Shown here piece after piece: positions 597-35,600 of a stretch of 45,161 nucleotides of DNA. Where the stretch lies: sequence record MZ506873; one strand, written 5' to 3'. This DNA is from Escherichia phage KW1E_UTAR. The notes under the pieces are model-generated. The model ran no database searches. It worked only from the letters and a program-made list of their open reading frames with translations, and was not told the DNA's origin. The position numbers and the translations under genes were made by a program. Position 1 is the stretch's first letter. Each line of letters starts with the position of its first letter.

Positions 597-814
597 TCGC
601 CGACGAAATACACAAGATTGCGAAGGGAAGCCAGATCCTGAACAAAATGTTCACGGAAGCGATTATCAACGTCATGGACGGAATGTTCGAACAGCTTGAG
701 GAAGGCCGCCCTCCGCTGTATATCGAAGGGCTGAAAAACTGCGACCAGGAAGAAGTCATAACCTTCCTTTGCACTTACCACAAAATCAAAATGGAACAGG
801 AGCGAACCAAATGA
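593..814 (+). CDS. hypothetical protein
   Basis: 73-aa ORF with ATGA stop/start overlap to the upstream gene (translational coupling). Confidence 0.45.
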   Translation: MIADEIHKIAKGSQILNKMFTEAIINVMDGMFEQLEEGRPPLYIEGLKNCDQEEVITFLCTYHKIKMEQERTK

Positions 815-1539
815 AAGACGAACACGACAAGGTGACGATCGACTGCCTGGGTGCGGAACTTCCGAAGCGCTCAAGCCTGGTAATGGACGCGCTGAAGTCG
901 ATGAAACTGGAAGGCGTCGGCGATGCTGAAGCGCAGATCGGACAGCCTGAAGACGTCGTCAGCGGTCGCGCGTGGGCCGGGAGCAAGACGCCGGACCGGA
1001 AGCGCTCAAAGTGGGAAACTCCGCTGTGGATGGTTCAATATCTTGAGCTTCGCCAGAAGGCCCGTTTCGAAGTCGACGCGGCAGCCAGCGACAAGAATCA
1101 CAAGGCCCCTATCTGGTACACGGAAGAGACTGACGGCCTAAGCAAGGACTGGGGCGCTGACGGGAAGTTCATCTTCCTGAACCCGCCTTATGACGACATC
1201 ATTCCGTGGGTTGAGAAGGCGATCGAGCAGATTAAAGCCCATAAGCACATCACGATCCAGATCGTGCTTCCGAACGACAATTCAACGTACTGGTATCGCC
1301 TGGCGGCTATCAATGCCACGGAGGTCATAAACCTGATTCACGACGGCAAGAACTCTGGGCGGGTTGGGTTCATCGATCCTGACACCGGGAAGGCGGTGAA
1401 CAATAACAATAAGGGGACCCAAATATTCACGCTGACCGGGAAGGGGAAGATGTCGCGGACTGTTTACGTGTCACGCGTAGACATGGAACGCAAGGTCGAA
1501 TCAGACTATGAAAAGGCGTTCGGCGATGGCGCACAGTAA
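811..1539 (+). CDS. DNA N6-adenine methyltransferase, phage Dam-like
   Basis: NPPY (DPPY-type) catalytic motif in FLNPPYDD; start ATG 811 with AGGAG 8 nt upstream, overlapping the previous stop. Confidence 0.65.
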   Translation: MKDEHDKVTIDCLGAELPKRSSLVMDALKSMKLEGVGDAEAQIGQPEDVVSGRAWAGSKTPDRKRSKWETPLWMVQYLELRQKARFEVDAAASDKNHKAPIWYTEETDGLSKDWGADGKFIFLNPPYDDIIPWVEKAIEQIKAHKHITIQIVLPNDNSTYWYRLAAINATEVINLIHDGKNSGRVGFIDPDTGKAVNNNNKGTQIFTLTGKGKMSRTVYVSRVDMERKVESDYEKAFGDGAQ

Positions 1540-1801
1540 ACGCCAGGTATGGGAGGCGGCTAAGGCCGCCGAAATGGACGCATTCATCGGTGCCGTATCG
1601 AAGGCGTTCGGTAGCGACGCTATCGCGGAAGTGTCCATCACTGCTGGCGGGTATATAACCGCCACAAGCGACGACATGCTGGTCGAGCCTGAACGCGTGA
1701 ACATCTGCCCGATTGAAAATCGCATCAGGGACAGAATGGCGGATGTGTGGCGGATAAGAATATCCGCTATGCGTAATAATCCGCTTGTTGTTCCGAAGTG
1801 A
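1508..1801 (+). CDS. hypothetical protein
   Basis: 97-aa ORF overlapping the 3' end of the methyltransferase gene; start uncertain (1508 or 1526). Confidence 0.35.
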   Translation: MKRRSAMAHSKRQVWEAAKAAEMDAFIGAVSKAFGSDAIAEVSITAGGYITATSDDMLVEPERVNICPIENRIRDRMADVWRIRISAMRNNPLVVPK

Positions 1802-1816
1802 ATACGCTATATTACA

Positions 1817-1844
1817 AGGACCGAATAAATGGTCCTTTTTTATT
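1817..1844 (+). terminator. rho-independent terminator
   Basis: AGGACC-gaataaat-GGTCCT hairpin followed by TTTTTTATT. Confidence 0.6.
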
Positions 1845-1857
1845 GTCTGGAGAAAAT

Positions 1858-2520
1858 ATGTCATTCGCTCAATTTATACTGAAGAAGGTGGATAATGGTT
1901 CCGCCGCTGAAGCTGAAGTTCTGAAGCGTAGGAAGGCAGAAGGCCGGGCCGGGCTACCGAAGGCAGCGCCGAAGAAACGCGGACCTAAAGCGAAGTGGAC
2001 GCCGGAGCGCGACGAGCGACTTAAGAACCTGGCGCGCAGATATACCGGGCCGGAGATCGCCGAAAAGATGGGCCTGACTTACTGTTCCGTCAGGACTCGC
2101 GCTTCACGTATAGGCGTAAAGCTGATTGGTCATCGCGGCAAGTACCACGAATGGACTCATGAAGAAGTAGAGCTTGTCAAAATCATGAGGGAGAAGGGTT
2201 ACACGTCGGTTGAGATCGGGAAGGTCCTGAAGGTCAGCGATATCCAGGTTCGCGGCACAATCCACAGAATGAAACTTCCGGCGCTCAGGAAGAAGTGGTC
2301 GCTTGAAATGGAATACGCTGTCGCCGCTTACTACAAGGAGAAGGACAGCACGATCCTGGAGTTCGTTCTCAAGATCAAGAAGTCATCCCTACATTCACGA
2401 TATGGTCGACTATCTGCAATGCGTCGACTGTCTCACCTTCGCGGCCTGAAGAACGTCAAGGATCTGGTGGCTGAATACTGCGAAAAGAAAGGCATTGCAT
2501 TACCATCGCGTAATAGTTAA
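1858..2520 (+). CDS. DNA-binding protein with two tandem GcrA-like HTH repeats
   Basis: Repeats KWTPERDERLKNLARRYTGPEIAEKMGLTYCSVRTRASRIGVKL and EWTHEEVELVKIMREKGYTSVEIGKVLKVSDIQVRGTIHRMKL match the GcrA N-terminal pattern as I recall it; start ATG 1858 after GGAG. Confidence 0.5.
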   Translation: MSFAQFILKKVDNGSAAEAEVLKRRKAEGRAGLPKAAPKKRGPKAKWTPERDERLKNLARRYTGPEIAEKMGLTYCSVRTRASRIGVKLIGHRGKYHEWTHEEVELVKIMREKGYTSVEIGKVLKVSDIQVRGTIHRMKLPALRKKWSLEMEYAVAAYYKEKDSTILEFVLKIKKSSLHSRYGRLSAMRRLSHLRGLKNVKDLVAEYCEKKGIALPSRNS

Positions 2521-2553
2521 TAATCAATGTTCACAAACGAAAGAGGGTTCACC

Positions 2554-2904
2554 ATGCAACGCAAGAAATATAACTTCACACTGCCGCGCCACATCACCAG
2601 AAAGCAATGGCGCATAATCCACCGTGATATGAGAAACAAGCTTCGCGATCTAGGCGGCGACGGCGTAAAACTTATCAGCGAAAAATATGGGACTTGGGCC
2701 ATTTACACCGTGTCTAACCATTCGAAGATAAGCTTCTTCTGGGATCTTGCCAGTCACAAGGAACATGATCGCTCCTTCTTCGCGGCAGCCATTCGCGGAA
2801 ACACTCAGGGCCGAACCATTGATCGCGTATTCGGTACGGTCCTGGCGCTGAAAGACCCGGCACATCCGGCTAATAACCTTCCTCCTCTGGGGGGTGGCGA
2901 GTGA
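2554..2904 (+). CDS. hypothetical protein
   Basis: ORF-track frame 2527..2904; start chosen at ATG 2554, 7 nt after AGAGGG. Confidence 0.5.
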   Translation: MQRKKYNFTLPRHITRKQWRIIHRDMRNKLRDLGGDGVKLISEKYGTWAIYTVSNHSKISFFWDLASHKEHDRSFFAAAIRGNTQGRTIDRVFGTVLALKDPAHPANNLPPLGGGE

Positions 2905-3434
2905 AGCCGATCACCATCAACCTATCAGACGACGACATCGAATTCGCCTACTACCTTAATGGTAGGGAAGAGACATTCGCGAAGAGTTTAAGCCAGTGCA
3001 GCCCGGACAGTCGGGCTGTGGGAATACTGGGGGAAATGGCGGCGACTCACTTCCTTCGTGGAATGTACGGGACGAAGCGATCTGTCGTTCCTATGGGGCT
3101 GTCTGCCCGCGCTGGCGGCGGCCTTAACGCTTACGGAATGGGTGACATCATCACCGTGATGAACGGCTCGCCCTCCCACAGGACGAAGGAGGTTCACACG
3201 TTCGAAGTGAAGGCGCGCACCGCTGGTGCAGGTAAGGGAAACCTTGTTCGATGTGACAGCGCCGAACAGTATCAGGAGTCCGGCATTATGCGCGTCATCT
3301 TCGTGGACGTCGATGTCCAGCCTGATCGTGCAGTCTGCCAGATCGTCGGCTACCATCAGCCTGAAGACATCCTTGAATGGGACGTGGTCACAAATGGCAT
3401 GGGTCAGGAATGCTATATCATGCCCGTAATTTGA
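2901..3434 (+). CDS. hypothetical protein, possible PD-(D/E)XK (VRR-NUC-like) nuclease
   Basis: GTG start overlapping upstream stop; GMGDIIT...FEVK...SAEQ...RVIFV resembles a D...(E)xK nuclease core. Confidence 0.45.
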   Translation: MKPITINLSDDDIEFAYYLNGREETFAKSLSQCSPDSRAVGILGEMAATHFLRGMYGTKRSVVPMGLSARAGGGLNAYGMGDIITVMNGSPSHRTKEVHTFEVKARTAGAGKGNLVRCDSAEQYQESGIMRVIFVDVDVQPDRAVCQIVGYHQPEDILEWDVVTNGMGQECYIMPVI

Positions 3435-3459
3435 CCGACAAGATCCACGGCGTTACTAT

Positions 3460-3490
3460 TCCCCGGACTAACACTTCGGGGATTTTTTTT
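3460..3490 (+). terminator. rho-independent terminator
   Basis: TCCCCG-gactaacactt-CGGGGA hairpin followed by a T8 run. Confidence 0.55.
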
Positions 3491-3766
3491 ATGCATAAGA
3501 TGCTATGGGTCGCTATCGCTGGCCTGGTCGGGGCCATCATCGGGATGTTCCGTTCCAAGGCTGACACTCTCACACAGCGCGCTTCGTTCGTCCTGTTCGG
3601 ATTCGCCGCGTCAATCTTCCTGACTCCGCTGGCTGCCCGCTGGTTCGGTCTGGGTGACATTTACGAGGTCGGCGGCGCTGGCTTCATTATCGGCATGTTC
3701 TGGATTGCTATTCTGGACCGGGTGAAGCAAGCTATGACGGACGGTAAATTACCGGAGGTCAAATAA
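3491..3766 (+). CDS. putative holin (three predicted transmembrane segments)
   Basis: Small hydrophobic protein (MHKMLWVAIAGLVGAIIGMF...) immediately upstream of the endolysin cassette; no clear SD. Confidence 0.5.
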   Translation: MHKMLWVAIAGLVGAIIGMFRSKADTLTQRASFVLFGFAASIFLTPLAARWFGLGDIYEVGGAGFIIGMFWIAILDRVKQAMTDGKLPEVK

Positions 3767-5175: not shown

Positions 5176-5940
5176 TCAGAATTCACGCTTAGGAGTGAAA
5201 TTAAAAGACATAACCTCACCGCCTAAATTAACAAGGCCGGAATGGTAAATCTTCCACCCTTCACCTTTTCCATCCACTTCGGACGGTCCAGAACCGTAGA
5301 TGATGCCTTCCATTTCTTCAGCGGATAACGCGGCGTAGCAGGTCAGGTCTGCCCGGCTGTCGATGGTCTTCGAGTCCTGTGCGCGCACCAGCTTCAGGCA
5401 CATAAGCAGGTCCCAGACGTCCATCGCGGTGAACTCCCGTCGCTTCAACGCGCTGAACATGGCAGCTACGCGGGCTGCGCTTCGTTCCTGTCCGTTGTCG
5501 TAACCTTCGCCGCGCTCGTTCAGCAGTTCAACGCCGTCCAGCAGGATCGCGCCAGCGGAACGCGGAAGACGTTCTTTGTCCATCTGATCCTGGGCGGCCT
5601 GATCCACGAACTTCGCGAAGTTATAGCGGGCCACTTCTGCGCGAGACATCGACTCACCAGTCCCGACAGCAAGATATTCACTGGCAGGGTACAGGCATTC
5701 AACCAGGCAATAGTCGACCTGGAATTCCACGCCAGGACAGTTAGGGTCTTCGATAATCCATTCGAACGTCACCAGCGTCTTGCCGTTGTGTTCTGTGGCG
5801 AAGCGTGGGATTACCAGCGCCTTTGATGGAGGTGTGTTTGTCTGATCAGGGCGTTCAAGGTCGCCGCGCGCAGGGTCATAGACGTGAATCATACCCAGCG
5901 TAGGCTTATACCCGTTGAACTTGTTGTTCATGTTAATCAT
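5176..5940 (-). CDS. hypothetical protein
   Basis: 254-aa ORF in leftward operon; the C-terminal half looks all-alpha, but no motif I can name confidently. Confidence 0.55.
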   Translation of the reverse strand: MINMNNKFNGYKPTLGMIHVYDPARGDLERPDQTNTPPSKALVIPRFATEHNGKTLVTFEWIIEDPNCPGVEFQVDYCLVECLYPASEYLAVGTGESMSRAEVARYNFAKFVDQAAQDQMDKERLPRSAGAILLDGVELLNERGEGYDNGQERSAARVAAMFSALKRREFTAMDVWDLLMCLKLVRAQDSKTIDSRADLTCYAALSAEEMEGIIYGSGPSEVDGKGEGWKIYHSGLVNLGGEVMSFNFTPKREF

Positions 5941-6193
5941 GCTGTGTCATCCTCATTTTTGCTATTTGACGGACCGCGATCTTGCGGTCGATGATTTTTA
6001 TCAGGTCGGCGTTTTCGACCTGCTGGTCGCGGTTAACGTTCGACGCGTTATTTCCTTTGATTCGCTCAAAGTAACGCCAGCGCCCACCCAGAATGTAGCG
6101 CCCAAATTCGCGACCGTTGAACGTTACGAACACTAAATCGTTGCGAGCGTGAAACGTTCCCGGCTTGTGCGCCCTCTTCCCGTTATATGCCAT
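5933..6193 (-). CDS. hypothetical protein
   Basis: 86-aa ORF in the same operon, overlapping neighbours by a few nt. Confidence 0.45.
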   Translation of the reverse strand: MAYNGKRAHKPGTFHARNDLVFVTFNGREFGRYILGGRWRYFERIKGNNASNVNRDQQVENADLIKIIDRKIAVRQIAKMRMTQHD

Positions 6194-6396
6194 TAGTAAA
6201 GCCTCAGTGTGAAGCCGTTCCGTTCCTTCGCCGTGTTGGGTCTGTTCGGGTCGACTTGTCGATAAACATGGATTGTGACCTTGTAGCCCATCTTCTGAGC
6301 GACAACCAGGACCGCGAAGTCGAAGCTGAACACCAGTGCCGTGATCACGATAAGCTTCACGACCTTCCTGACTACAGCGCTGATATTACGCTTCAC
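6193..6396 (-). CDS. small membrane protein
   Basis: 67 aa with hydrophobic stretch VVKLIVITALVFSFDFAVLVVA. Confidence 0.4.
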   Translation of the reverse strand: MKRNISAVVRKVVKLIVITALVFSFDFAVLVVAQKMGYKVTIHVYRQVDPNRPNTAKERNGFTLRLY

Positions 6397-6408
6397 GGAT
6401 AACCCCTG

Positions 6409-6954
6409 TCAACTTTTGTTTAGCGCGCGTTTCCTGCGCATGTTGTCCCGGTTCTTGCGGCGGCGTTCTGCTGCCTGTTCCGGCGTCTCGTTCTTCCGGC
6501 GTTCACGTTCGCGCTGGGCTGGCGTCATCACCTGGACACGTTCACCGTTCACAGTGACACGCGGAGGGATTAGCTCACCATCGATCGCCACGGTGTTCTG
6601 TGCGACAGCATATTCGACGTAATGCTGTGCAACATCACGGATGAACTGTGGCTGTGTACCATTAAGAAAGCGAATGATGTCAGAATATCCTATCAGGTCC
6701 AGCTTTTCGACCCGATCGTTTTCACCAGCATAAAGCGACCCTGACTTCGAACCATCGATCGCACTGAAGCGTACAACGTTCGCCCCGGTAAGCGAGCGAA
6801 CCACGCCTTTGCATCGAACGATTTTACCATCGCGAATAAACAGGTCGCCGTCCTGAAGCACCACGTGCCACGAAAGCAGTACGCCGGGACGGACCAGTAA
6901 CGCCAGGTTACGCGCTGCTGACATAACTGCCGATCTGTAGTGGAATGATGACAT
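6409..6954 (-). CDS. hypothetical protein with strongly basic C-terminal tail
   Basis: C-terminus RERERRKNETPEQAAERRRKNRDNMRRKRALNKS suggests nucleic-acid binding. Confidence 0.5.
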   Translation of the reverse strand: MSSFHYRSAVMSAARNLALLVRPGVLLSWHVVLQDGDLFIRDGKIVRCKGVVRSLTGANVVRFSAIDGSKSGSLYAGENDRVEKLDLIGYSDIIRFLNGTQPQFIRDVAQHYVEYAVAQNTVAIDGELIPPRVTVNGERVQVMTPAQRERERRKNETPEQAAERRRKNRDNMRRKRALNKS

Positions 6955-6955
6955 G

Positions 6956-7441
6956 TTAGTATTCCTGCCAGTTGTAATTCTCAGCTTCAGGGGTTACACC
7001 GCCAACCACCGTGTTGGGTGCACTAATTACTCTCTCTTCTGGCGTCATGTGCCCTGTCTGGGGGAGTATCACACCATGACGGATAAGGGTGTCCTGAAGG
7101 TCTTCAACGCGCTCAATGGCGAGGCGCAGACGCGATAGCTGATATCCCTTGCGACGAACCCAGTCAGCCATTGCGACCTTCTGGTCAAGACGCCAGGCGC
7201 TGACATGCGCGTCCTTCTTCGTCTTGCGCGCCCGGTTCCATCCCTTCGTCTTCAGGCAGTGATCGATCAATCCCTGGTCGACTACCGGGTTCTTGTCCCA
7301 GTCCCACGGAAGGCTTATGTGATAGACGAAGTGTTCTGTCTCTTTGATGACGACACGGCGTTCAGCGAACAGAGCGGAAGCACCATCCCCGCCGCGATTC
7401 CAGTCGCGATAGCGGTACACGTACACGTTTTTATCAATCAT
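6956..7441 (-). CDS. hypothetical protein
   Basis: 161-aa ORF, operon context. Confidence 0.5.
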   Translation of the reverse strand: MIDKNVYVYRYRDWNRGGDGASALFAERRVVIKETEHFVYHISLPWDWDKNPVVDQGLIDHCLKTKGWNRARKTKKDAHVSAWRLDQKVAMADWVRRKGYQLSRLRLAIERVEDLQDTLIRHGVILPQTGHMTPEERVISAPNTVVGGVTPEAENYNWQEY

Positions 7442-7803
7442 TTCGAACCCTCCACGCGGGATCTTGAGTAAAGAAAACCTTCAGCCATATAAACAGCGGT
7501 ACGGGTGGCGGCTGTCCGCTTATACACGTCGCCGGAATCCCCCTTCGCGACCACTCCGTCAGTGATATGCTTGAACTCTTCGCCCGTCATGCCGTTAAGG
7601 TGAGCCGTAACGCCTAACAGACAGGCCACAGCCAGCGCGTCGCGTGACTTCGGTAACATGTTCGGCGTGTCGCGGGCCACGGTGTCGTGGCAATACTGGA
7701 ATGCGGCTTCGTCCGGCATCTTTTCGGCAGCGCCGACGGTCCCAACATAACAGCTACCAACGACACAGGCAGCGGCGATAGCAATGGCAGTGATGCGTTT
7801 CAT
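7438..7803 (-). CDS. putative lipoprotein or secreted protein
   Basis: N-terminal signal peptide MKRITAIAIAAACVVGSC with lipobox-like VGSC. Confidence 0.55.
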   Translation of the reverse strand: MKRITAIAIAAACVVGSCYVGTVGAAEKMPDEAAFQYCHDTVARDTPNMLPKSRDALAVACLLGVTAHLNGMTGEEFKHITDGVVAKGDSGDVYKRTAATRTAVYMAEGFLYSRSRVEGSK

Positions 7804-7821
7804 GTCTTTATTCCTTATCGG

Positions 7822-8592
7822 TTACAGAGTCCAGCGACCAGTGTTATTGACCATCATGTCGTGTGCGCCGACTCGCTTGTTCATCTTGAACACGTATACG
7901 CGGTCAAGCGTCCCTTCCTGCCCGTAGCAGATGTTAGCCACCTGCTTCTTAACCTGCTTGCTGAAGTATGCCGCGTCAGTCGATTCGCGGATGACGTCGA
8001 CCGTTCTGGTTGAGCAGTCGATCGAGACAGCGACAGAACCTTCGAGCGACATACGGGACGCGTCTACCGGGTAAGACGGGACCACTTCAGCCTGGGCCGG
8101 GCTGACCAGTGAAGAGAAGACCAGCGCAGCACCAGCGAACGCCAGGCCGATTTTGTGCGACAGGCTGTTCCGACGGGCCAGTGTTTGAGTGATGGCCTGA
8201 TCCTGGGCGGATTTTTTAGTCATCATTCTGGCGCGGAAGTCACGACAGAAATCAGAATCATCGTCACGAAGTGAAGCGTAGCCAGCATCATTATCAATCG
8301 CGTCATTCATGCGCAGCGCTTCAGCGTGGTAAGCGTCCATCTGTTCTGACACGCGAAGGGCAGCTTCAGCACAATAAATAACAGTGCTCAGGTGGTTAAA
8401 GAAGTCACGACCAGAACGACGCTTCAGAACATTCTCAACGTTGAACAGGATGTCCGCTGGCAGTTCGTTAGACAGTTCACACAGGATTACGCGAAGGTCT
8501 GATTTACTCTCTTTCAGCTTCAGACCAGCGGCGCGCAGTTCGTAAACGCGGGTCATAATTTTCAGTGCAGAGCGGATAGCGATAGAGTTCAT
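7822..8592 (-). CDS. membrane-anchored protein (cytoplasmic N-domain, one transmembrane segment, periplasmic C-domain)
   Basis: Internal hydrophobic segment IGLAFAGAALVFSSLVSPAQA around residue 160. Confidence 0.55.
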   Translation of the reverse strand: MNSIAIRSALKIMTRVYELRAAGLKLKESKSDLRVILCELSNELPADILFNVENVLKRRSGRDFFNHLSTVIYCAEAALRVSEQMDAYHAEALRMNDAIDNDAGYASLRDDDSDFCRDFRARMMTKKSAQDQAITQTLARRNSLSHKIGLAFAGAALVFSSLVSPAQAEVVPSYPVDASRMSLEGSVAVSIDCSTRTVDVIRESTDAAYFSKQVKKQVANICYGQEGTLDRVYVFKMNKRVGAHDMMVNNTGRWTL

Positions 8593-8643
8593 TTTCGTGT
8601 TCCTTTGGATTTTGGCGGAACGTTGTGTCCCGCCTTGAGATAC

Positions 8644-8671
8644 ATATTACAGGAAGCGAATATTACGTCAA
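8644..8671 (-). promoter_or_regulatory. sigma70-like promoter (TTGACG-N16-TAATAT) on the minus strand
   Basis: Minus strand reads TTGACGtaatattcgcttcctgTAATAT, upstream of the 7822..8592 gene. Confidence 0.4.
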
Positions 8672-9000
8672 GAAGATATTTCGACTTTAATCGCAAAAAC
8701 TTCAACCGGGTCCGGCCCGAAGTGAGGATGTGTGATGGTCTTCACAGTGTAGCCACGGTAAGCGACATCGATCCGGCGACTGGCATCACCGCGCGGCGGG
8801 TAGCCCAGCGTAATGACCAGGCGGTCATATTTCCGACCCTCCAGGCGCTTCCTCCAGTACGGCGTGACAAGGCGATACTCTTCCACCTTCTCACCGCTTA
8901 CCATCTGGTCGAAGTAGACCTTCTTCACTGCTAACTGAAGCGTTACCATAGCCGTTTCACTCCTTCCTTCGCCATTTGCCATTCCATGTGATTGGCGCAC
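8668..9000 (-). CDS. ASCH/DUF3850-like domain protein (tentative)
   Basis: LAVKKVYFDQMVSGEKVEEYRL...VITLGY pattern resembles ASCH-type PUA-like domains; start may be the internal ATG at 8948. Confidence 0.45.
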   Translation of the reverse strand: MRQSHGMANGEGRSETAMVTLQLAVKKVYFDQMVSGEKVEEYRLVTPYWRKRLEGRKYDRLVITLGYPPRGDASRRIDVAYRGYTVKTITHPHFGPDPVEVFAIKVEISS

Positions 9001-9311
9001 TCTTCCATACAGAACTCTTCGATTAGGTCGTCGTCACCTTCGCTGTCGATGCGCATAAGCGCGTGTTCTGGAAGCATACCCCATCCGCTGCCGCTCTTTA
9101 TTTTGTCGCCGCTCGGATGCCTGGCGTTAAGGTCGCCAATCACCAACCAGGAAAAAGCCCCGTCTGTTCTCTTTGGCTTGAACTGGTACACTCCGCCGTC
9201 CGGCGCTTCGACAAGGCTGTCCTTATCGTGCCGACTCTGACAGCGCACCGTCTTGCCTGTGTGTGGTCCTTTGATGACCATCGCAAGGCATCCTGGGACT
9301 AATGGTTTCAT
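8943..9311 (-). CDS. hypothetical protein
   Basis: 122-aa ORF, operon context. Confidence 0.45.
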   Translation of the reverse strand: MKPLVPGCLAMVIKGPHTGKTVRCQSRHDKDSLVEAPDGGVYQFKPKRTDGAFSWLVIGDLNARHPSGDKIKSGSGWGMLPEHALMRIDSEGDDDLIEEFCMEECANHMEWQMAKEGVKRLW

Positions 9312-9346
9312 GTTGGTCCTTATGGCCCCATCTGGGCCGTGGTGGG

Positions 9347-10774
9347 TTATTCGTCTAACAGTGGATTGTTAGCCATTATCTTATAGTCGATGTACATCTG
9401 AACGGCGTTTTCGCCACGCCCTTCGGTCCGCTCAACGATGTGGTGGGCCTTGACCAGCGCGGACAGCGCGCTAATGACAGACCCGCGTGGCATCCCGGTG
9501 ATCTCCGTCACCATGCGGCGCGCTGCTGATACAGATTCGCGGCCCTTCAGTTCGGCGCAGAACACGCGATACACCTCTTTCTGGTTATCGGTCCAGCGGT
9601 GACGGGTTCGACGCTCTTCCGGCGTTTCCTGCTTCTCTTCCTTCTGACCGACCACTTCGGCGGAGTTATCCAGGATGTACGTCATGAACGGTGATTTGTT
9701 CACTCCGGGGATCTCCGTCGGCATGTCTTCCAGCTTGATCGTGAACTGGGATTCGTACTCGTCAAGCAACGCCTTCTCTTCGGCCTTCGGGACCGACAGC
9801 GTCGGGCGACCACACAGTCGAAGCGTGGCATTGAACCCGCCGCCGCGCTGCTTGTCCGGGGTCAACATGACACCGTCGCCGTCCTTCTCACGGCGAAGAG
9901 ACCACGTCTTCCACATCGCGCCCTTCGCCGCGCCACCGCCTCGCGAATCCATCTTGCCGTCACCGGACAGGCTGGCCTTCGTCGGGTGGGACAGGAAAAG
10001 CCCGGCAGCCCCGATCGATTTGCAGAACAGCAGAGAGTTCACGCTAATGGCTTGCTGGTCATCGTTGCTGTTCTCTTCCAGCGACGAACCGTTCGACCGG
10101 ATGCAATGGGTCATGAGCGCGGCCTTAGTGTCGAACACCACCAGCTTGATCGGCTCACCAGCGGCCCAGTCATACAGCGTATTGATGTGGTTCGTCAGCG
10201 CTTCGCCTGGGCGGATGCCTTCCTTCGTCTTAACGAACGCCATAAGGTTCGGGAAGTTCGCAGTCACATAGACGCGGTCCTGAAGCTGGACGTCTTCAGC
10301 CAGTTCGATAGCGCGCAGCATAGCGCGGAATCCTTCCGGGTCCTCTGAATACACCACGACCCGCCCAGGCACCACGCGGAACGCTCCGAGGAAGTGACCT
10401 ATCTGTGTGTCGGCGATGCAAGCGGCGAGGCGCGCCACCACTGTCGACTTCCCTGTCCCTGGCCCGGCGACCAGCTCATTGATGGTGTTCGAATACAGCA
10501 TGTGCTCCACCACGACGTCGGGGACGCGGCGATCGGACACCTTCTTCTTCGTCCCGGTCAGTAGGTCCAGCTTGCGCTGAAGGTCGGGAACAGAATCGTT
10601 CTCTTTGGCGTGGAACGCGTCCATGTCCCGATAGACTTCGGCCCACTCTTCCGGCGTCAGTTCGACCTGAAAATCGTCGTCTGTCTCACTTGTCGGAACG
10701 ACCATTTCGACAGGCATGTTCTGGTTGTCTTGCGACGTCGGTTCGACACCGCCGCCATTCTCTAAGTTATCCAC
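9347..10774 (-). CDS. AAA/RecA-like ATPase with C-terminal winged-helix domain (possible replication initiator, helicase or regulator)
   Basis: Walker A GPGTGKST, Walker B-like LVVFDT, C-terminal HTH-like segment; GTG start with AGAGGG upstream. Confidence 0.7.
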   Translation of the reverse strand: MDNLENGGGVEPTSQDNQNMPVEMVVPTSETDDDFQVELTPEEWAEVYRDMDAFHAKENDSVPDLQRKLDLLTGTKKKVSDRRVPDVVVEHMLYSNTINELVAGPGTGKSTVVARLAACIADTQIGHFLGAFRVVPGRVVVYSEDPEGFRAMLRAIELAEDVQLQDRVYVTANFPNLMAFVKTKEGIRPGEALTNHINTLYDWAAGEPIKLVVFDTKAALMTHCIRSNGSSLEENSNDDQQAISVNSLLFCKSIGAAGLFLSHPTKASLSGDGKMDSRGGGAAKGAMWKTWSLRREKDGDGVMLTPDKQRGGGFNATLRLCGRPTLSVPKAEEKALLDEYESQFTIKLEDMPTEIPGVNKSPFMTYILDNSAEVVGQKEEKQETPEERRTRHRWTDNQKEVYRVFCAELKGRESVSAARRMVTEITGMPRGSVISALSALVKAHHIVERTEGRGENAVQMYIDYKIMANNPLLDE

Positions 10775-10825
10775 AGATTTTGACCCTCTCTTGACTGAAC
10801 ATTTTGTCGCGACTGTCTCGCTTTC

Positions 10826-11121
10826 TTAAGACAATACAGCATAGACGCGGCGCGCGCAACGTTCCGACGTCTAAAACATGCATATTACGACCTCACTATC
10901 AGTATGTTGTTTAACCACAGTAAGACAAAAATCCCAAAAGTGGCCCGATATCAATGACTTACGCGTGTCTTAACTTTCCGCCCCCTAATAAATAAAAACA
11001 AGTAAGACAAAACACCTCACGCGTACACTTAACTACTATATATTCCACCCTTGAGGGGTGGATATATATTAGTAGTGTGTAATAAGTGCATCTTGAGGAA
11101 AACAGACAGTCTTGTCTTAAC
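10826..11121. repeat. Cluster of five TAAGACA/TGTCTTA iteron-like repeats in an AT-rich divergent intergenic region
   Basis: TAAGACA at 10827, 10921, 11003; reverse complement at 10966, 11113; palindrome CCACCCttgagGGGTGG at 11045-11061. Confidence 0.6.
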
Positions 11122-11152
11122 TGTTCGACAAAGTAGAATCATACCTCAGTCG

Positions 11153-11161
11153 TGATATAAT
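11153..11161 (+). promoter_or_regulatory. extended -10 promoter element (TGaTATAAT)
   Basis: Perfect TATAAT at 11156-11161 preceded by TG at 11153-11154; about 22 nt upstream of the ATG at 11184. Confidence 0.4.
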
Positions 11162-11183
11162 GAACGCCACAGGAGGACGCAAC

Positions 11184-11696
11184 ATGTCAGACGAAATTAA
11201 ACACGTAACGAAGCGCGGAGTCGGAAGGCAGTTAACCTACACTGACGACGTGCCTGAACGCCTCACAGACTTCTTCGACCGTGATGTGGATGAATTCATC
11301 GTCCATAACTTCACGACCGCTGAGAAGTCGAACTATCGCGTCAAGCCCATCCCTACACTGGCAGGGTTCTGTCGCGAACTGGGTATCGCACCGTCAACGC
11401 TGCACAGATGGATGTCCGTCGAATCGCAACTGACACAGGAGCAGCGCGATGAATTGTGCAATGCTTACTCACGCGCCCGCACGCTACAGGAAAATATCGT
11501 CACCCAGATCGGCATGATGACTAATGGCACGTTCGCCGCTTTCATGCTGAAATGTAACTTCGGATGGCGTGACAACACGGAAGTGAAGACCGACGAGAAC
11601 GTGAAGCCTATCCGTGTCAAGATCGTCAGCGAACGACCTGTCGATGTAGACATCCAGACCACAGAACAGAAACCGATCGAGTGGGGTGATGACTGA
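11184..11696 (+). CDS. terminase small subunit-like HTH protein (tentative)
   Basis: VKPIPTLAGFCRELGIAPSTLHRWM HTH pattern resembles TerS families; start ATG 11184 with AGGAGG 7 nt upstream. Confidence 0.5.
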   Translation: MSDEIKHVTKRGVGRQLTYTDDVPERLTDFFDRDVDEFIVHNFTTAEKSNYRVKPIPTLAGFCRELGIAPSTLHRWMSVESQLTQEQRDELCNAYSRARTLQENIVTQIGMMTNGTFAAFMLKCNFGWRDNTEVKTDENVKPIRVKIVSERPVDVDIQTTEQKPIEWGDD

Positions 11697-11788: not shown

Positions 11789-12240
11789 CCACCGCAAAGA
11801 AGTTAACCAAAGCACAGAAGGCTGACCTGGCTGTCAGCGAAACGAAGGCACTGTCCGGTCATCACGTAGCCCTGGCTGGCGGTACGCTGATCGGAGCTTC
11901 GATCTCTGTCGATCCAGACGCGCAGATCAAGTCCGAGATCCTTAACGGGATCGACCAGGCGCAGCAGCGCGCGACCGAAGAGTTCGAAGCGGAAGTTCTC
12001 CACATCCTGGAAGGCGTCAGTCGTGGGGCGGTAGCCACCATCACCGGGGACCTGAAGCGCGGCTTCCTCCGTGACCGCCACAACAATGACCATCCGAACA
12101 AGCTGGTCGTGGCGCTGGTGGAACACGGCCTTCTCGATCCTGGCTGGTATCGCGGCGTCATGATCCCCACATCGATCTACCATCTGCGCATCACCGATGC
12201 CGGGCGCGACTACCTGGCTGGCGTGAAGGCTGACGGCTGA
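11785..12240 (+). CDS. hypothetical protein
   Basis: ORF-track frame 11725..12240; start chosen at ATG 11785 overlapping the micro-ORF stop. Confidence 0.5.
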   Translation: MTTAKKLTKAQKADLAVSETKALSGHHVALAGGTLIGASISVDPDAQIKSEILNGIDQAQQRATEEFEAEVLHILEGVSRGAVATITGDLKRGFLRDRHNNDHPNKLVVALVEHGLLDPGWYRGVMIPTSIYHLRITDAGRDYLAGVKADG

Positions 12241-14940: not shown

Positions 14941-15237
14941 ATGGCAAGAACGAAGGCTTTATCCGTACTCACGAACGCGCAGGTCTACACGTTGCGCCGC
15001 CTGGCCTCTGGTCGGTCGTACATGTGTCAGGGCAACGGGAAGCGAGCATTCGAGCGCCGCAAGGAATACCGCGTAGGCTTCGACGATGTGAACGCGCCGT
15101 CAATCCCGCCACTGATTCGGAAGGGACTCGCCAGGATTGACCCGCGCTACACCAACCCGAACCCGACCAGCTATTACCCGGTAGTTCTGACCGTGGAAGG
15201 CGTCAAGGCAGCAAAAGAGGCGGTGATTAATGATTAA
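14941..15237 (+). CDS. hypothetical protein
   Basis: ORF-track frame 14932..15237; start chosen at ATG 14941 after AGGAG. Confidence 0.5.
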   Translation: MARTKALSVLTNAQVYTLRRLASGRSYMCQGNGKRAFERRKEYRVGFDDVNAPSIPPLIRKGLARIDPRYTNPNPTSYYPVVLTVEGVKAAKEAVIND

Positions 15238-15949
15238 GCGCATGGTCATCTGGTCACTGTTCGACGGCTCCGGCTACGCGGTGAAGGACTACGCTGAAGC
15301 GGGCCACATCTGCTTTTGTGTCAACGCGGACGATGCCGACCACGGCGACTACACCAACCTGAACGCCAGGATCGAACACCACAACATTCACTACGTGAAC
15401 CGCTGGATCGACAAGGAGTTCTTTGACGACGCGGTCGCCGGGCTTATCCCTGAACTGGGTAAGCCGGACCTTATCCTTGCGTTTCCTCCGTGTACTGACC
15501 TGGCGAACAGCGGGTCACGATCATGGGCGAAGAAGCGCGAAGCGAACCCTGACTTCCAGATCGAGGCGGCACTGACTGCCCGAATCGCTGCCAATCTGGG
15601 GAATTACTTCCAGGTTCCGTGGATGGTAGAGAACCCGGCTGGCATGTTAAGCACTCTCTGGCGCAAGCCGGACGTGTACGTCGAGCCGTGGCACTTTGGG
15701 CGCTACCTGCCTGAAGGCGATGTCCATCCACACTTCCCGGAGTACATCAAAGCGCGCGACGCGTACCCGAAGAAGACGGGCCTTTGGTTCGGTCAGGGGT
15801 TCGTCATGCCACTGGCGAAGCCTGTCCCTATCGGTAAGGGGCTGTCCACTCAGTACAAGAAGTTAGGCGGCAAGTCCACGAAGACGAAGGTTATCCGTTC
15901 ACTCACTCCGCGCGGACTGGCGCGGGCAATCTATGAGGCAAACAAGTGA
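15230..15949 (+). CDS. DNA cytosine-5 methyltransferase-like protein, short and non-canonical
   Basis: Motif I-like LFDGSGY, motif IV-like DLILAFPPCTD (PPC-T instead of PCQ), motif VI-like ENP; 239 aa, no room for a typical target-recognition domain. Confidence 0.5.
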   Translation: MIKRMVIWSLFDGSGYAVKDYAEAGHICFCVNADDADHGDYTNLNARIEHHNIHYVNRWIDKEFFDDAVAGLIPELGKPDLILAFPPCTDLANSGSRSWAKKREANPDFQIEAALTARIAANLGNYFQVPWMVENPAGMLSTLWRKPDVYVEPWHFGRYLPEGDVHPHFPEYIKARDAYPKKTGLWFGQGFVMPLAKPVPIGKGLSTQYKKLGGKSTKTKVIRSLTPRGLARAIYEANK

Positions 15950-16857: not shown

Positions 16858-18207
16858 ATGTCCACAGTTTCAGACCTGTCCTCATTCACAGAACTGACCC
16901 TTACGCCGCCACAGTGGGAATTCCTACAGCTTGACTGTAAACATCCGGCATTCGTCGCCGGGTTCGGTACTGGCAAATCCCAGACCCTTGCAGTGTCAGC
17001 AGTCATCGACTCATGCGAAGGCGGGGCCGACTCCCTCGTCGCTATCCTGGAACCAACCTTCGACCTGTGCCGCACGATCGCCGTCCCCCGCGTCCAGCAG
17101 ATCCTGTCTGAACTGGGAATCCGATCGAAGTACAACAAGAGCGACAACACGATCTACACGTCACACGGCGGGGTGGGTGACTTCCTGTTCCGCTCAATGG
17201 ATAACCCTTCCCGACTGGTAGGCTGGGAAGCGTACAGCGCACATCTTGACGAACTGGACACCCTGAAGAAGAAGGACGCAAAAAGCGTATGGCTGGCGAT
17301 GATCGGGCGTACCCGACAGACCGTTCGGGAAGTCAGCCTGATGGACTGGCTGCCGACCACACGACCAGCCAACCGCGTCGCCGCTTACTGTACGCCTGAA
17401 GGGTTTAACTTCCTCTATGGGCGATGGGCGAAGGACAAGGACCGCGCGCGTGATGCTGGCTACGGCATGATCCAGGCTGCGTCCATGTCTAACCCGTTCC
17501 TTCCGCCTGGCTACCTGGACAGCTTGCGAGCCAGTTATGACCCGCAACGCTTCCAGGCGTACGCTGAAGGCAGATTCGTCAACCTGAACGGCGGGTCCAT
17601 CTATCACAAGTTCGATCGCAAGCTGAACGGGTGCGACACGACAATCCAACCGGGCGAACCGCTGACCATCGGGCAGGACTTCAACGTCGGCAAAATGGCC
17701 ACTGTTATCTACGTGGACCGCTGGGGGGATGATGGTCTGGAGGAACTCCACGCCGTCGCGGAAATCAAAGACGGAGTAGACACACCGGACGTGATCGAGA
17801 AGTTAACGGCAGCCTATCCGGGCCACGAATTGAACCTGTACCCGGACGCCAGCGGACAGAACACTTCATCGAAGTCCGCTTCCGTGTCAGACGTCGGCCT
17901 GTTCGAAGAGGCTGGCTTCCTGGTGCATGTCCACGGCTCTAACCCACGCGTCAAGGACCGCGTTATCAGCATGAACACCATGATCTGTGACATGAATGGA
18001 CGCCGTCGCCTGAAGGTGAACGAAAAAGCCTGTCCGACGTTTGCAGACTGTCTGGAGCAACAGATCTACGCGGAGAACGGGGAGCCGGACAAGAAGGGGG
18101 GCAAGGACCATATGAACGATGCTGGCGGCTATCCTGTAGTTTATCGCTTCCCTATTATCCGTGATAAGATGGACGCCTCTGACATGACTATCAGATTCGC
18201 ACGATAA
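16858..18207 (+). CDS. terL: terminase large subunit
   Basis: Walker A-like VAGFGTGKSQT near N-terminus, Walker B-like HLDELD, about 450 aa, directly upstream of portal. Confidence 0.85.
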   Translation: MSTVSDLSSFTELTLTPPQWEFLQLDCKHPAFVAGFGTGKSQTLAVSAVIDSCEGGADSLVAILEPTFDLCRTIAVPRVQQILSELGIRSKYNKSDNTIYTSHGGVGDFLFRSMDNPSRLVGWEAYSAHLDELDTLKKKDAKSVWLAMIGRTRQTVREVSLMDWLPTTRPANRVAAYCTPEGFNFLYGRWAKDKDRARDAGYGMIQAASMSNPFLPPGYLDSLRASYDPQRFQAYAEGRFVNLNGGSIYHKFDRKLNGCDTTIQPGEPLTIGQDFNVGKMATVIYVDRWGDDGLEELHAVAEIKDGVDTPDVIEKLTAAYPGHELNLYPDASGQNTSSKSASVSDVGLFEEAGFLVHVHGSNPRVKDRVISMNTMICDMNGRRRLKVNEKACPTFADCLEQQIYAENGEPDKKGGKDHMNDAGGYPVVYRFPIIRDKMDASDMTIRFAR

Positions 18208-32695: not shown

Positions 32696-35600
32696 TGGAC
32701 CAGCCTGACAACATGAAGATCATCGAAAAGGCTACCGGGAAAGTAGTGCGCGGCGCGAAGGGTGGTGGCGGAAGCGTTCACACGCCAAAGGAAGACCCGG
32801 ACAGCCTGACAAGCCTGGCTGTCGTTCGTATGCTTCTGGCCCTTGGGGAAGGTGAGTTCGAATCGTTCGGCACTGATGACCTGAAGAAGCGCGTCATGCT
32901 GAACGGTACGCCGATCATGAACGCTGACGGGACCTATAACTTCAATGACGTCGTGATCGACTACCGCCCAGGAACATCTGGTCAATCCCACATTGCCGGG
33001 ATGCCAGCGGTCGAGTCTGAAACGGGTGTCGGCGTGGACCTGAAGGCCACGAACGAATGGACCCAGGCCCTGACAAACACGTCAATCGACGCTGTTCGCG
33101 TTCGAATCGGATTCCCCACCCTTCTACAGCAGAAGTCAAACGGGGACCGTGTAGGCTCGCGCATCGACTACACGATCTTTATCCGCAACCTGTCCGGCGG
33201 TGAGCTGTGGAAGAAGGACTTCAGCGCGATCGGCAAGACTACAACGCTGTATGAACGCGACCATCGAATCGACCTTCCACCATCACAGACAGGGTGGATT
33301 GTGGCTGTGCGACGTAACACGGCAGATAGCACAGACAGCAACCTGGTTAACCCGACTAAAATCCAGGCTTACACAGAGATCGTGGACCTTAAGCTGTCCT
33401 ACCCTAACACCGCGCTTTTGTACGTGGAGTTTAACGCGAAGCTTTTCCAGTCCATCCCGAAAGTGTCCATTAAGGCGAAGGGCCGCAAAATCCGCGTACC
33501 TCAGAACTATGACCCGATCACGCGGACGTATAACGGTTCGTGGGACGGCTCGTTCAAGTGGGCGTGGAGCAATAACCCGGCGTGGGTCTTCTTCGACTGC
33601 GCAACGGAACCGCGCTTCGCTCTGGGTAATAAGATTAACGCGTCCATGCTGGATAAGTGGGAACTGTACCGCATCGCGCAGCGTTGCGATCAGCTTGTCC
33701 CAGACGGTCGTGGCGGAGAGGAACCGCGCTACCTGTGCGACGTCTATATCCAGGGGCGTGAACAAGCCTGGACCGTCCTGAAGGACCTGGCGGCTATCTT
33801 CGCCGGAATGACGTTCTGGGGTGGCGGAATGCTGAACGTGCTTTCCGATCGTCCTGGCGATGTTAAGCAGGTGCTTACCCGCGCAAACGTGGTGAACGGT
33901 AAATTCCAGCGCCACGGCGGAAGCGGGCGAAACCGTCGCAGCGTGGCTAACGTGTCATGGGATGACCCGGCGAACCATTACCAGACGAACGTGGCTGTCA
34001 CGCCTATGATTGAGCTTGTGAACCGCTACGGATGGACTGAACCACTGGAACTGTCGGCGATCGGCTGTACTCGCTTGGGCGAAGCGCAGCGTCGCGGCAA
34101 GAACGCGCTTATCACCAACGTGACCGACGGGACCACGGACTTCAGCATCGGCATGGAAGGGATCGAATTTATGCCGGGCGACATCATCGGCATCGCCGAC
34201 GATACCTTCAGCGGCGGACAGTTCGGCGGACGTGTCGTTCGCGCAAATGGAGCGCGCTCTGTCATCCTCGATCGACCAGTGAACGAAGTTACGAAGGCGA
34301 ACGACTGGATCCTGTTCCGACAGGCCACAGACCCGGACGTTTCCCGCTTCCAGATCGCGTCCATTTCTGCTGACCGGAAGACCATCACCGTGACGACTGA
34401 CATCCTGAAAGGCGTAAACCCGTTCACGCCGTGGGTCGTCGACACTCAGGCGATCGCCATTACCCAGCATCGCGTGATCTCCGTTACCTGGAACGAGCAG
34501 GACAACACGTTCGACTGTGTGGTTCTGAAACATGACCCGTCAAAATATGACGCGGTTGACTTGGGCGCTCACCTGGATGACAGGCCGACCACCCTGATCC
34601 CGCCGGGATTCATGGAAGTGCCGAAGAACATCCAGATCACCAGTTACGAAATGCTCGTTCAGGGTACGCGTCAAACCGTCCTGCGAACCACTTGGGACAA
34701 GGTGAAGGGCGCGGTGGTGTACGATGCTCAGTGGCGTCGCGACAATAACGACTGGATTAACGTTCCGTCCACGTCCACAGAAGGATTCGAGGTTCAAGGG
34801 ATCTTCTCTGGCGATTACTGGGTTCGCGTTCGTGCGACAAACAGTTCTGGCGTGTCATCCCCGTGGGGGGAGGCAGTCAAGACCGGAATCACTGGTCGCG
34901 AAGGTGCTGTTCCTGTTCCGCAAGGTCTGAAGGCTACCAGTCAGAACTGGGGCATCAAATGGAACTGGCTAGCAGGTCGACAGGCTGACACGTCTGACAT
35001 CGCGTTCACCGAACTGGAACACTCAGTCAAGGGACTGTCCGGCTATGGCCCGTTCACGCTCCTGACGACCGTGGCCTTCCCTGCTGACTCGTTCGTTCAG
35101 GATGGTCTTGCCTTCGGTCAGTATATCCGCGTCCGCGCGCGTTACGTTGACCGCTTGGGGAATAAGTCAGACTGGTCGGCAGTGGTTGAGGGTAACGCTA
35201 ACGAAGACGCTGGCGACTACCTAGCTGGAATTACCGACGACCTGCTGACGTCGGAAGACGGCAAGGAGTTAATGAACCAGATTAACACCATGCCGGAAGC
35301 GGTCTATGAATCCATGCTGACCGACTATAAGACCCTTCTGGACGTGAAGGCTGGGGAAGGTAATCAGGTCGCCAGAATCCAAATCGCCTACAACGTGGCA
35401 GTGGAAGCGAACGAGGCAGTCGCGCAGCTTGAAACGCTGGTGGGTTCACGTATCGACGACGCTGAAGCGGCTATTCACACACTACAGACCGCCCAGGCAT
35501 CAATTGAGCAGTCATTCGCGCAGTATCAGCAGACGGTTAGCGCGAAATTCGGTGACGTTCAGGCGTCATTCGATGAACAGGGCAACCTGATCGACGCACA

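Follow-up and report, generated by a model that had tools for sequence, protein, structure and literature searches.

The 45,161-bp stretch of DNA analysed here (sequence record MZ506873, hereafter the window) comprises the entire genome of Escherichia phage KW1E_UTAR, opened within the primase gene. Near its start lie a DNA N6-adenine methyltransferase gene (Dam, 811–1539) and, one small gene further on, a gene at 1858–2520 for a protein with helix-turn-helix (HTH) repeats, whose products exactly match the GenBank entries QYA57166 (“DNA methylase”) and QYA57168 (“putative DNA-binding protein”), respectively. A preliminary description of this DNA had proposed that the two form an epigenetic writer/reader pair, in which an HTH protein resembling Caulobacter GcrA reads the marks left by the neighbouring enzyme, an interpretation that the present analysis does not bear out. 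We lean instead, if only slightly, towards a reading in which an orphan, anti-restriction Dam stands beside a D5-like, methylation-independent DNA-binding regulator of the early-to-late switch, a preference that concerns the general role of the protein and not a specific mechanism. The family assignments, the architecture of the protein, the terminator in front of its gene and the distribution of both genes, on which this reading draws, are observed directly.

Homologs of the HTH protein were collected by an exhaustive HMMER search, a word-indexed search having returned only three near-identical proteins and a locus scan with the single protein just one close relative. The structural model used here is an AlphaFold prediction on the resulting family alignment (mean predicted local distance difference test score, pLDDT, 84.9), since prediction from the single sequence was unusable (pLDDT 46). 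It contains three consecutive three-helix bundles, preceded by a helix spanning residues 3–27 and followed by two short C-terminal helices, with a conserved tail at residues 191–211. The preliminary description had recognised two repeats in this protein, and their existence is clear from the alignment of repeat 1 with repeat 2 (z = 5.5, matched by one of 500 shuffles). Their number required revision, since a hidden Markov model (HMM) built from family repeats and the AlphaFold model both identify a third copy, weak in pairwise self-alignment (z 1.7). Tryptophans W47, W99 and W147 are conserved across the family, and the recognition helix of repeat 2 carries a near-invariant QVRG motif in which Q130 is nearly invariant; the protein has only two cysteines. 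The N-terminus MSFAQ is kept in the orthologs (as MS(F/L)A in P0022 and P0041, our labels for orthologs from two other phage types), supporting the ATG at 1858 as the start codon. In at least three phage types the full-length architecture of N-terminal helix, three repeats and tail persists even where identity has fallen to 30%, which argues for selection acting on the protein as a whole.

The best family match of the HTH protein is PHROG 323, ‘transcriptional regulator, D5-like’ (expectation value, E, 1.9e-17; 64.8 bits), with residues 38–187 aligned to profile positions 88–250, and the next PHROG, at 2.5e-5, is twelve orders of magnitude worse. The D5 protein of phage T5 (T5.118) itself matches phrog_323 at 1.2e-71, and comparison by hhalign with the profile of the HTH family gives an alignment of 101 columns (E 5e-5, probability 68%, ~19% identity) pairing repeats 1 and 2 of the window protein with D5 residues 130–235. 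When the repeat HMM is applied to D5 (17311–18078 of the T5 record, L020), it detects three module copies at approximately residues 72–118, 136–182 and 190–236, preceded by an N-terminal region; the two proteins share this plan of an N-terminal region and three tandem HTH copies, and both are early or middle proteins of their phages, although their N-terminal parts differ and the likeness exists at the profile level only. The D5 gene lies among replication genes and is described in its GenBank note as a ‘DNA-binding protein; required for DNA replication and late transcription; also is involved in shutoff of expression’, while its mechanism is poorly defined. A search of the T5 segment 50–99 kb revealed no Dam homolog. 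Fold matches in BFVD likewise include a Vibrio-phage “D5 protein”, together with a Mor activator, a phage “GcrA” and many tandem-HTH proteins. Its architecture and highest-scoring family make the HTH protein a relative of T5 D5, and these comparisons class it as a new member of a known, poorly understood family of D5-like tandem HTH proteins built from modules of the GcrA DNA-binding domain (DBD) type.

The closest solved architectural analogues are Myb R2R3 and the crenarchaeal CRISPR-repeat-binding protein 2LVS. Both Myb R1R2R3 and the Cbp1/Cbp2 proteins (1H88, 2LVS) string three-helix HTH units together by short basic linkers and bind as monomers to an extended site, and 2LVS, the top Foldseek match of the window protein, matches two consecutive repeats at E 1e-7, in addition to a weak match to the NCBIfam model HTH_Cbp1. 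The biology and genomic context of these proteins are unrelated to those of the phage protein, so that the likeness, at low sequence identity, is one of architecture and fold class. An analogy with lambda Q is positional only: the window gene follows the early operon and precedes the lysis cassette, next to junctions combining a promoter and a hairpin, and its ortholog P0022 lies between NinB/NinG and the terminase genes. No Q family occurs among the Pfam, PHROG or fold matches of the HTH protein, leaving antitermination without support.

The likeness to the N-terminal domain of GcrA noted in the preliminary description is significant in several comparisons. Residues 98–155 align with positions 2–58 of Pfam GcrA (PF07750) at E 1.8e-5, with a score (25.6 bits) that does not reach the gathering threshold of 26.9. 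A profile of 14 family members matches the GcrA DBD structure 5YIU through repeat 1 (E 7.9e-6) and, when compared with full-length GcrA (7YE1_G), covers residues 2–47 only; BLASTP aligns repeat 1 with Caulobacter crescentus GcrA at 33% identity (E 8e-5) and returns no alignment for repeats 2 and 3. The HTH protein contains the three-helix DNA-binding domain of GcrA type. The preliminary description would have been refuted had no significant match to GcrA-type domains emerged, an outcome that did not occur. This likeness is not exclusive, as the Sigma70_r4_2, HTH_23 and Myb models score comparably on the same module, and across the 14 family members Sigma70_r4_2 matches 13 while GcrA matches nine, in keeping with the published resemblance of the GcrA DBD itself to sigma region 4 (PMC5887438).

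Beyond the DNA-binding module the two proteins part ways, and by sequence comparison the HTH protein is not a GcrA. In GcrA, a C-terminal domain interacting with region 2 of sigma70 and bearing a CCCH zinc finger (C-X14-C-X9-C-X2-H) preloads the protein onto RNA polymerase (PMC5887438). No such domain was found in the HTH protein, whose Pfam and PDB matches end at GcrA residue ~58 or ~47, and the CCCH pattern is also absent. Residues R33, N34, I37 and G38 of GcrA form two methyl pockets and, together with H41 and R42, read the sequence YGAKTCG, and the I37E mutation as well as most pocket-filling substitutions crippled activation (PMC5887438). In a MAFFT alignment, which for repeat 1 agrees with the profile and BLASTP alignments, these six positions are occupied by Y75, C76, R79, T80, S83 and R84 in repeat 1, and by D128, I129, R132, G133, H136 and R137 in repeat 2. 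Most of the pocket and base-contact residues are replaced, and the equivalent of I37, which forms the floor of pocket 1, is an arginine in both repeats. Methyl reading by the HTH protein is not supported by this comparison; the protein might sense methylation in another way. Differences of context add to those of sequence: GcrA (5YIU/5YIW/5YIX, 7YE1) has one DBD copy where the window protein has three, the gammaproteobacterial host of the window phage lacks the CcrM/GANTC system of the Caulobacter setting, and the neighbouring methyltransferase (PF05869) belongs to a family other than that of the GcrA partner.

The module itself is widespread. A unit of ~50 residues resembling the GcrA DBD occurs in 473 representative proteins (E ≤ 0.001), and the best 150 of these contain arrays of two to ten tandem copies in proteins of up to 879 residues. 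The “CRWP...C...CxxH” tail typical of the GcrA finger is present in four of these 150 (P0046, P0137, P0140 and P0152), which would on this pattern be multi-DBD versions of true GcrA.

The methyltransferase was correctly recognised from its NPPY motif. Its 242-residue open reading frame (ORF), the ATG of which overlaps the stop codon of ORF 593–814, contains the sequence FLNPPYDD, with the catalytic NPPY at nucleotides 1180–1191 (residues 124–127), and matches Pfam PF05869 ‘Dam’ (1.6e-38, 132.5 bits, cut-off 28.1), NCBIfam TIGR01712 ‘phage N-6-adenine-methyltransferase’ (112.7 bits, cut-off 97.05), phrog_111 (3.8e-54) and the PADLOC ‘orphan methyltransferase’ model (1.7e-33), as well as phage T1 Dam (40% identity including LNPPY, E 5e-38). 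Its neighbours, namely primase, two small hypothetical proteins and a DUF7334 protein, agree with the orphan status indicated by PADLOC, and no further enzyme gene follows Dam in the early primase operon. Judged by these matches it is an unremarkable representative of a phage family that is very common, and characterised members of the T1-type Dam family act on GATC. Two non-specific enzyme types were considered for it and rejected: Hia5/Hin1523-type enzymes are related to E. coli/T4 Dam, carry DPPY and FxGxG motifs (PMC3299994) and fall outside PF05869, as does M.EcoGII, which is of class beta. The DUF7334 gene overlapping the end of Dam accompanies it in relatives (working labels L007, L010, L013, L016, L017, the Webervirus L011, and JVSB2), including phages without the HTH gene. 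Phage T1 shares the layout of a helicase/primase operon, Dam, a small overlapping ORF, a terminator and, later, lysis genes, differing in an N-terminal extension of ~50 residues that distinguishes the two Dam proteins and in its small ORF, which has no detectable similarity to DUF7334. A second methyltransferase gene was observed at ~15230–15949 of the window, among small genes between terS and the large terminase gene, and the annotation of its counterpart in Klebsiella phage vB_KM5a1-KLB22 (MVRL005) names a C-5 cytosine DNA methylase; a phage with at least two orphan methyltransferases would fit an anti-restriction role.

Phage KLB22 is 89.5% identical to KW1E_UTAR across the first 6 kb, with identical gene order, and has been assigned to the proposed family Ca. 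Mavericviridae, beside the T1-like Drexlerviridae (PMC11845039); KW1E_UTAR, which is devoid of lysogeny genes, is considered strictly lytic (PMC11445585). The literature on KW1E_UTAR, KLB22 and the Serratia phage ChibiTotoro contains nothing on the HTH protein. On the plus strand of the window, the primase gene, two small ORFs, Dam, the DUF7334 gene, a hairpin terminator and the HTH gene follow one another, succeeded by a 125-residue ORF, a 177-residue phrog_10558 ORF, a second hairpin, and the holin, endolysin and spanin genes. Nine related genomes share the succession of Dam, DUF7334, terminator and HTH, with the HTH gene placed after the early-operon terminator and ahead of the lysis cassette and its product ranging from 93% to ~30% identity.

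This adjacency is best described, from the genomes compared, as synteny of a whole module within one phage lineage, since elsewhere the two genes occur independently. Dam homologs were found in 1778 phage records and the HTH protein in five. At the corresponding position phage T1 carries Dam, an overlapping small ORF and a terminator and lacks the HTH gene, as does a Klebsiella Webervirus with its Dam block and terminator. In JVSB2, a member of the same proposed family, Dam and DUF7334 are followed by two tiny ORFs, the phrog_10558 gene and the holin gene, again without the HTH gene. Conversely, P0022 and P0041, from two unrelated phage types, are full-length HTH orthologs with N-terminal helix and three repeats. 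The gene for P0022 comes after DnaB, NinB, NinG and ANT, with the gene of an intein-containing large terminase 1.5 kb further on; that for P0041 comes after RecT, with the genes of both terminase subunits, small and large, 1.4 kb further on. No Dam or other methyltransferase was seen within 6–8 kb of either. Rates of change also differ, Dam being 74–85% identical across the same genomes in which the HTH protein is 31–36% identical, unlike what would be expected of a reader locked to the mark of its writer. Comparative evidence of this kind indicates that the Dam and HTH genes are evolutionarily uncoupled.

The terminator of the early operon, which the preliminary description had rightly placed ahead of the HTH gene together with an RBS (ribosome-binding site; GGAGAA, upstream of the ATG), has a hairpin at 1816–1837 followed by a T-run. 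It is kept in six relatives (in L010 through a compensatory exchange of C-G for G-C), is annotated in KLB22 and KLB16, and has its equivalent in T1 after Dam and the small ORF. Abutting it, the block TATATTACAAGGACnGAATAA at the promoter candidate 1785–1813 is invariant in six relatives despite diverged flanking coding DNA, making it the probable promoter of the HTH gene, even though a consensus promoter scan did not pick it up. The junction at 3431–3490 directly precedes the holin start at 3491; an alignment of five relatives shows its –10 element and hairpin to be conserved, whereas its –35 element and a GATC at 3442 in the promoter spacer are not kept in L010. At both junctions (1785–1845 and 3431–3490) a –10-like hexamer with a plausible –35 directly precedes the hairpin, so that transcripts from either promoter would begin inside the hairpin or at its foot, and in distant relatives this block of –10 and hairpin is more conserved than the flanking coding DNA. 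The arrangement looks like a repeated ‘stop upstream, restart here’ separator of the early, HTH and lysis units.

Table. Features of the window at and around the Dam and HTH genes
Feature	Position	Strand	Description and basis
T1-type orphan DNA N6-adenine methyltransferase (phage Dam)	811..1539	+	Pfam, NCBIfam, PHROG, PADLOC, T1 identity
Small DUF7334 protein	1508..1801	+	PF24022 1.5e-7; overlaps Dam gene end
Sigma70-like promoter candidate	1785..1813	+	TTGTTG, 17 nt, TATATT; read from sequence; abuts terminator hairpin
Intrinsic terminator of early primase-Dam operon	1816..1845	+	Stem 1816-1822/1831-1837, then T-run; terminator scan
220-residue putative DNA-binding protein	1858..2520	+	N-helix, basic linker, three tandem GcrA-DBD-like HTH repeats, C-terminal tail
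HTH repeat 1	1993..2127	+	Residues 46-90; helices 49-59, 64-71, 75-84; AlphaFold (AF2) model
HTH repeat 2	2149..2283	+	Residues 98-142; helices 101-112, 117-124, 128-137; AF2 model
HTH repeat 3, most degenerate copy	2293..2427	+	Residues 146-190; helices 149-158, 165-171, 175-187; repeat HMM, AF2 model
125-residue protein	2527..2904	+	Predicted to be co-transcribed with HTH gene
177-residue phrog_10558 protein	2901..3434	+	phrog_10558 2.8e-28; last gene before lysis cassette
Second promoter and terminator junction	3431..3490	+	TTGACC, 17 nt, TACTAT, hairpin 3460-3482, T-run; promoter and terminator scan
AAA_25/RepA-like gene	9347-10774	-	Borders 385-bp divergent region 10775-11159
terS	11160-11696		PF16677; borders divergent region 10775-11159

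The two genes following the HTH gene differ in their history. The 125-residue protein has no Pfam, PHROG or PADLOC match, and its homologs, found in KLB16, L010, L016 and L017 at 31–55% identity and absent from the Serratia phages, L008, L009 and JVSB2, are limited to the Klebsiella/Escherichia branch that also carries the HTH gene; no conserved partner for it was found outside the lineage. Its distribution suggests a fast-evolving protein that travels with the HTH protein. The phrog_10558 protein is 36% identical to the product of JVSB2 34730–35254, and its presence in this phage, which is without the HTH gene, points to a gene ancestral to the module; a weak match to the terminase gpA endonuclease domain (E 0.046) was also observed. 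No PADLOC defence model matches the HTH protein or its neighbours. Other late regulators (Ogr/Delta, Q) were not detected in the minus-strand block 5176–10774 of the window. In Serratia relatives, the minus-strand block encodes a 61-residue Ogr/Delta-type zinc-finger protein of the P2 late-activator family (12869–13054 in L013, ChibiTotoro).

Genome-wide, GATC is neither enriched nor avoided (observed-to-expected ratio 1.06), and GATC as a regulatory mark was rejected: L010, which has both the Dam and HTH genes, has lost the site at 3442, and the promoters preceding the HTH gene and terS contain no GATC. KLB16 lacks the GAATC found in the spacer of the terS promoter. GATC sites of the window are packed most densely at 11889–11952, inside the gene after terS, where six of them fall within 64 bp at ~12-bp spacing (P ~0.015 for a cluster of such density anywhere in the genome); three more sites lie 250 bp downstream (12136–12177), and the orthologous place in KLB22 has four sites in 43 bp, also the densest cluster of that genome. 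The pac site of phage P1 is methylation-dependent, and by analogy with it such a cluster would give Dam a packaging-related role.

The 385-bp divergent region at 10775–11159 contains five copies of TAAGACA (often TAAGACAA) in both orientations, a word found only once elsewhere in the 45 kb. It also includes a 28-nt imperfect palindrome (11024–11081) and, in front of terS, a conserved extended –10 element (TGATATAAT, 11153–11161). KLB22 has four TAAGACA copies, KLB16 has another repeated word there (TAGTAAA, five copies), and the clustering is absent in L008, L009 and L010. These repeats may be iterons, origin or operator sites.

In the mechanism that we propose for KW1E_UTAR, Dam, made from the early primase operon, would methylate adenines in replicating phage DNA, most plausibly protecting this DNA from restriction or keeping it fully methylated. 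Dam and DUF7334 would be closed off by the intrinsic terminator, exactly as in T1, and the HTH gene would open a new transcription unit from its own conserved promoter. Its product is predicted to be a monomeric multi-module DNA binder, the three repeats with their short basic linkers each occupying one major groove and jointly reading a long asymmetric site; RNA polymerase or other partners could be contacted through the N-terminal helix and the C-terminal tail. By binding phage DNA independently of methylation, the protein would tune the early-to-late switch, a role suggested by its D5-like architecture and family and by the slot its gene occupies between early or recombination genes and terminase or structural genes.

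Several points weigh against this proposal. The DNA binding, regulatory role and targets of the HTH protein are ones that we infer from sequence comparison. The link to D5 is modest, consisting of a PHROG profile match and the hhalign score given above, and is carried by the repeats, a module common to hundreds of other proteins. JVSB2, T1 and Webervirus run a late programme without the HTH protein, which would make it an accessory factor and not an indispensable late activator or universal switch. Nor could the TAAGACA cluster, the one motif cluster detected, be tied to the protein as its binding site, the neighbouring AAA_25/RepA-like gene being an equally good candidate.

Among other explanations, a non-transcriptional role seems unlikely without being far-fetched. 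Here the HTH protein would coat or organise DNA in a D5-like manner, or mark a cis site for replication or packaging, such as the region 10775–11159 near the RepA-like helicase gene and terS. D5 is annotated as needed for DNA replication as well, the two distant orthologs are encoded directly upstream of terminase genes, and weak PHROG matches to small-terminase and DNA-binding families exist; the concentration of TAAGACA between the AAA_25 gene and terS would also agree with such a role, as would the different repeated word in KLB16, whose HTH protein is 50% identical to that of the window. Yet a terS gene of its own is already present in the phage (PF16677), and the iteron-like repeats, which do not cluster in L008, L009 and L010, could just as well belong to the adjacent AAA_25/RepA-like protein, the region being no more than a candidate target of the HTH protein. 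The tandem repeats could also stem from the DNA-binding domain of a homing endonuclease or another mobile element, now domesticated or in decay, as a moron-like gene with no part in the phage programme, since the gene occurs in part of the lineage, is absent at the same position in JVSB2 and T1, has its own promoter and follows a terminator, and the same tandem HTH is fused to endonucleases elsewhere (weak PHROG HNH and BFVD endonuclease matches). With no nuclease domain or remnant in the protein, and an entire architecture preserved at 30% identity in at least three phage types, we regard this origin as very improbable.

We also consider quite improbable the writer/reader pair with which the analysis began, in which Dam would mark promoters of the phage or its host and the GcrA-like protein with its three repeats would bind preferentially to the methylated sites and alter transcription at them, timing late or lysis expression to replication and methylation. 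The structural match to GcrA is uniquely good, the equivalents of G38, H41 and R42 are partly retained in repeat 2, and the adjacency of the two genes is stable. However, the sigma70-interaction domain is missing, R33 and N34 are not kept and I37 is replaced by arginine in both repeats, other HTH models score comparably, and GcrA reads GANTC marks made by CcrM and not the product of a T1-type Dam. An E. coli host already methylates GATC, so that this mark would not distinguish phage DNA. The loss of the promoter GATC in L010, the GATC-free promoters of the HTH gene and terS and the unremarkable genome-wide frequency of this word are equally unfavourable, as are the occurrence of Dam without the HTH gene and of the HTH gene without a nearby Dam and the strong difference in evolutionary rate. 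A related version, in which the triplicated GcrA-derived module, recruited by lytic enterobacterial phages without the sigma70 anchor, senses the methylation state of the phage's own DNA and couples lysis and late transcription to replication, is to our mind more doubtful again; the marks would then be those left by the adjacent Dam, for instance full versus hemi-methylated GATC in promoter spacers such as that at 3442. If true, no m6A-reading transcription factor would have been described before it in a virus or anywhere else beyond the Alphaproteobacteria, and epigenetic control of transcription would extend to lytic coliphages.

For the annotation of phage genomes, the present case calls for caution, as a Pfam “GcrA” flag on a protein encoded next to Dam is not enough to establish a writer/reader system. 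The uncharacterised “putative DNA-binding protein” of phages resembling KW1E_UTAR and KLB22 can now be linked to the family of T5 D5, and the description of D5 as three GcrA-DBD-like repeats offers a concrete structural hypothesis for a classic, poorly understood function of T5. Finally, the GcrA DBD itself can be placed in an extensive family of tandem-repeat HTH proteins, a few of which, among the best 150 matches, possess the zinc-finger tail, a relationship that bears on the origin of GcrA.

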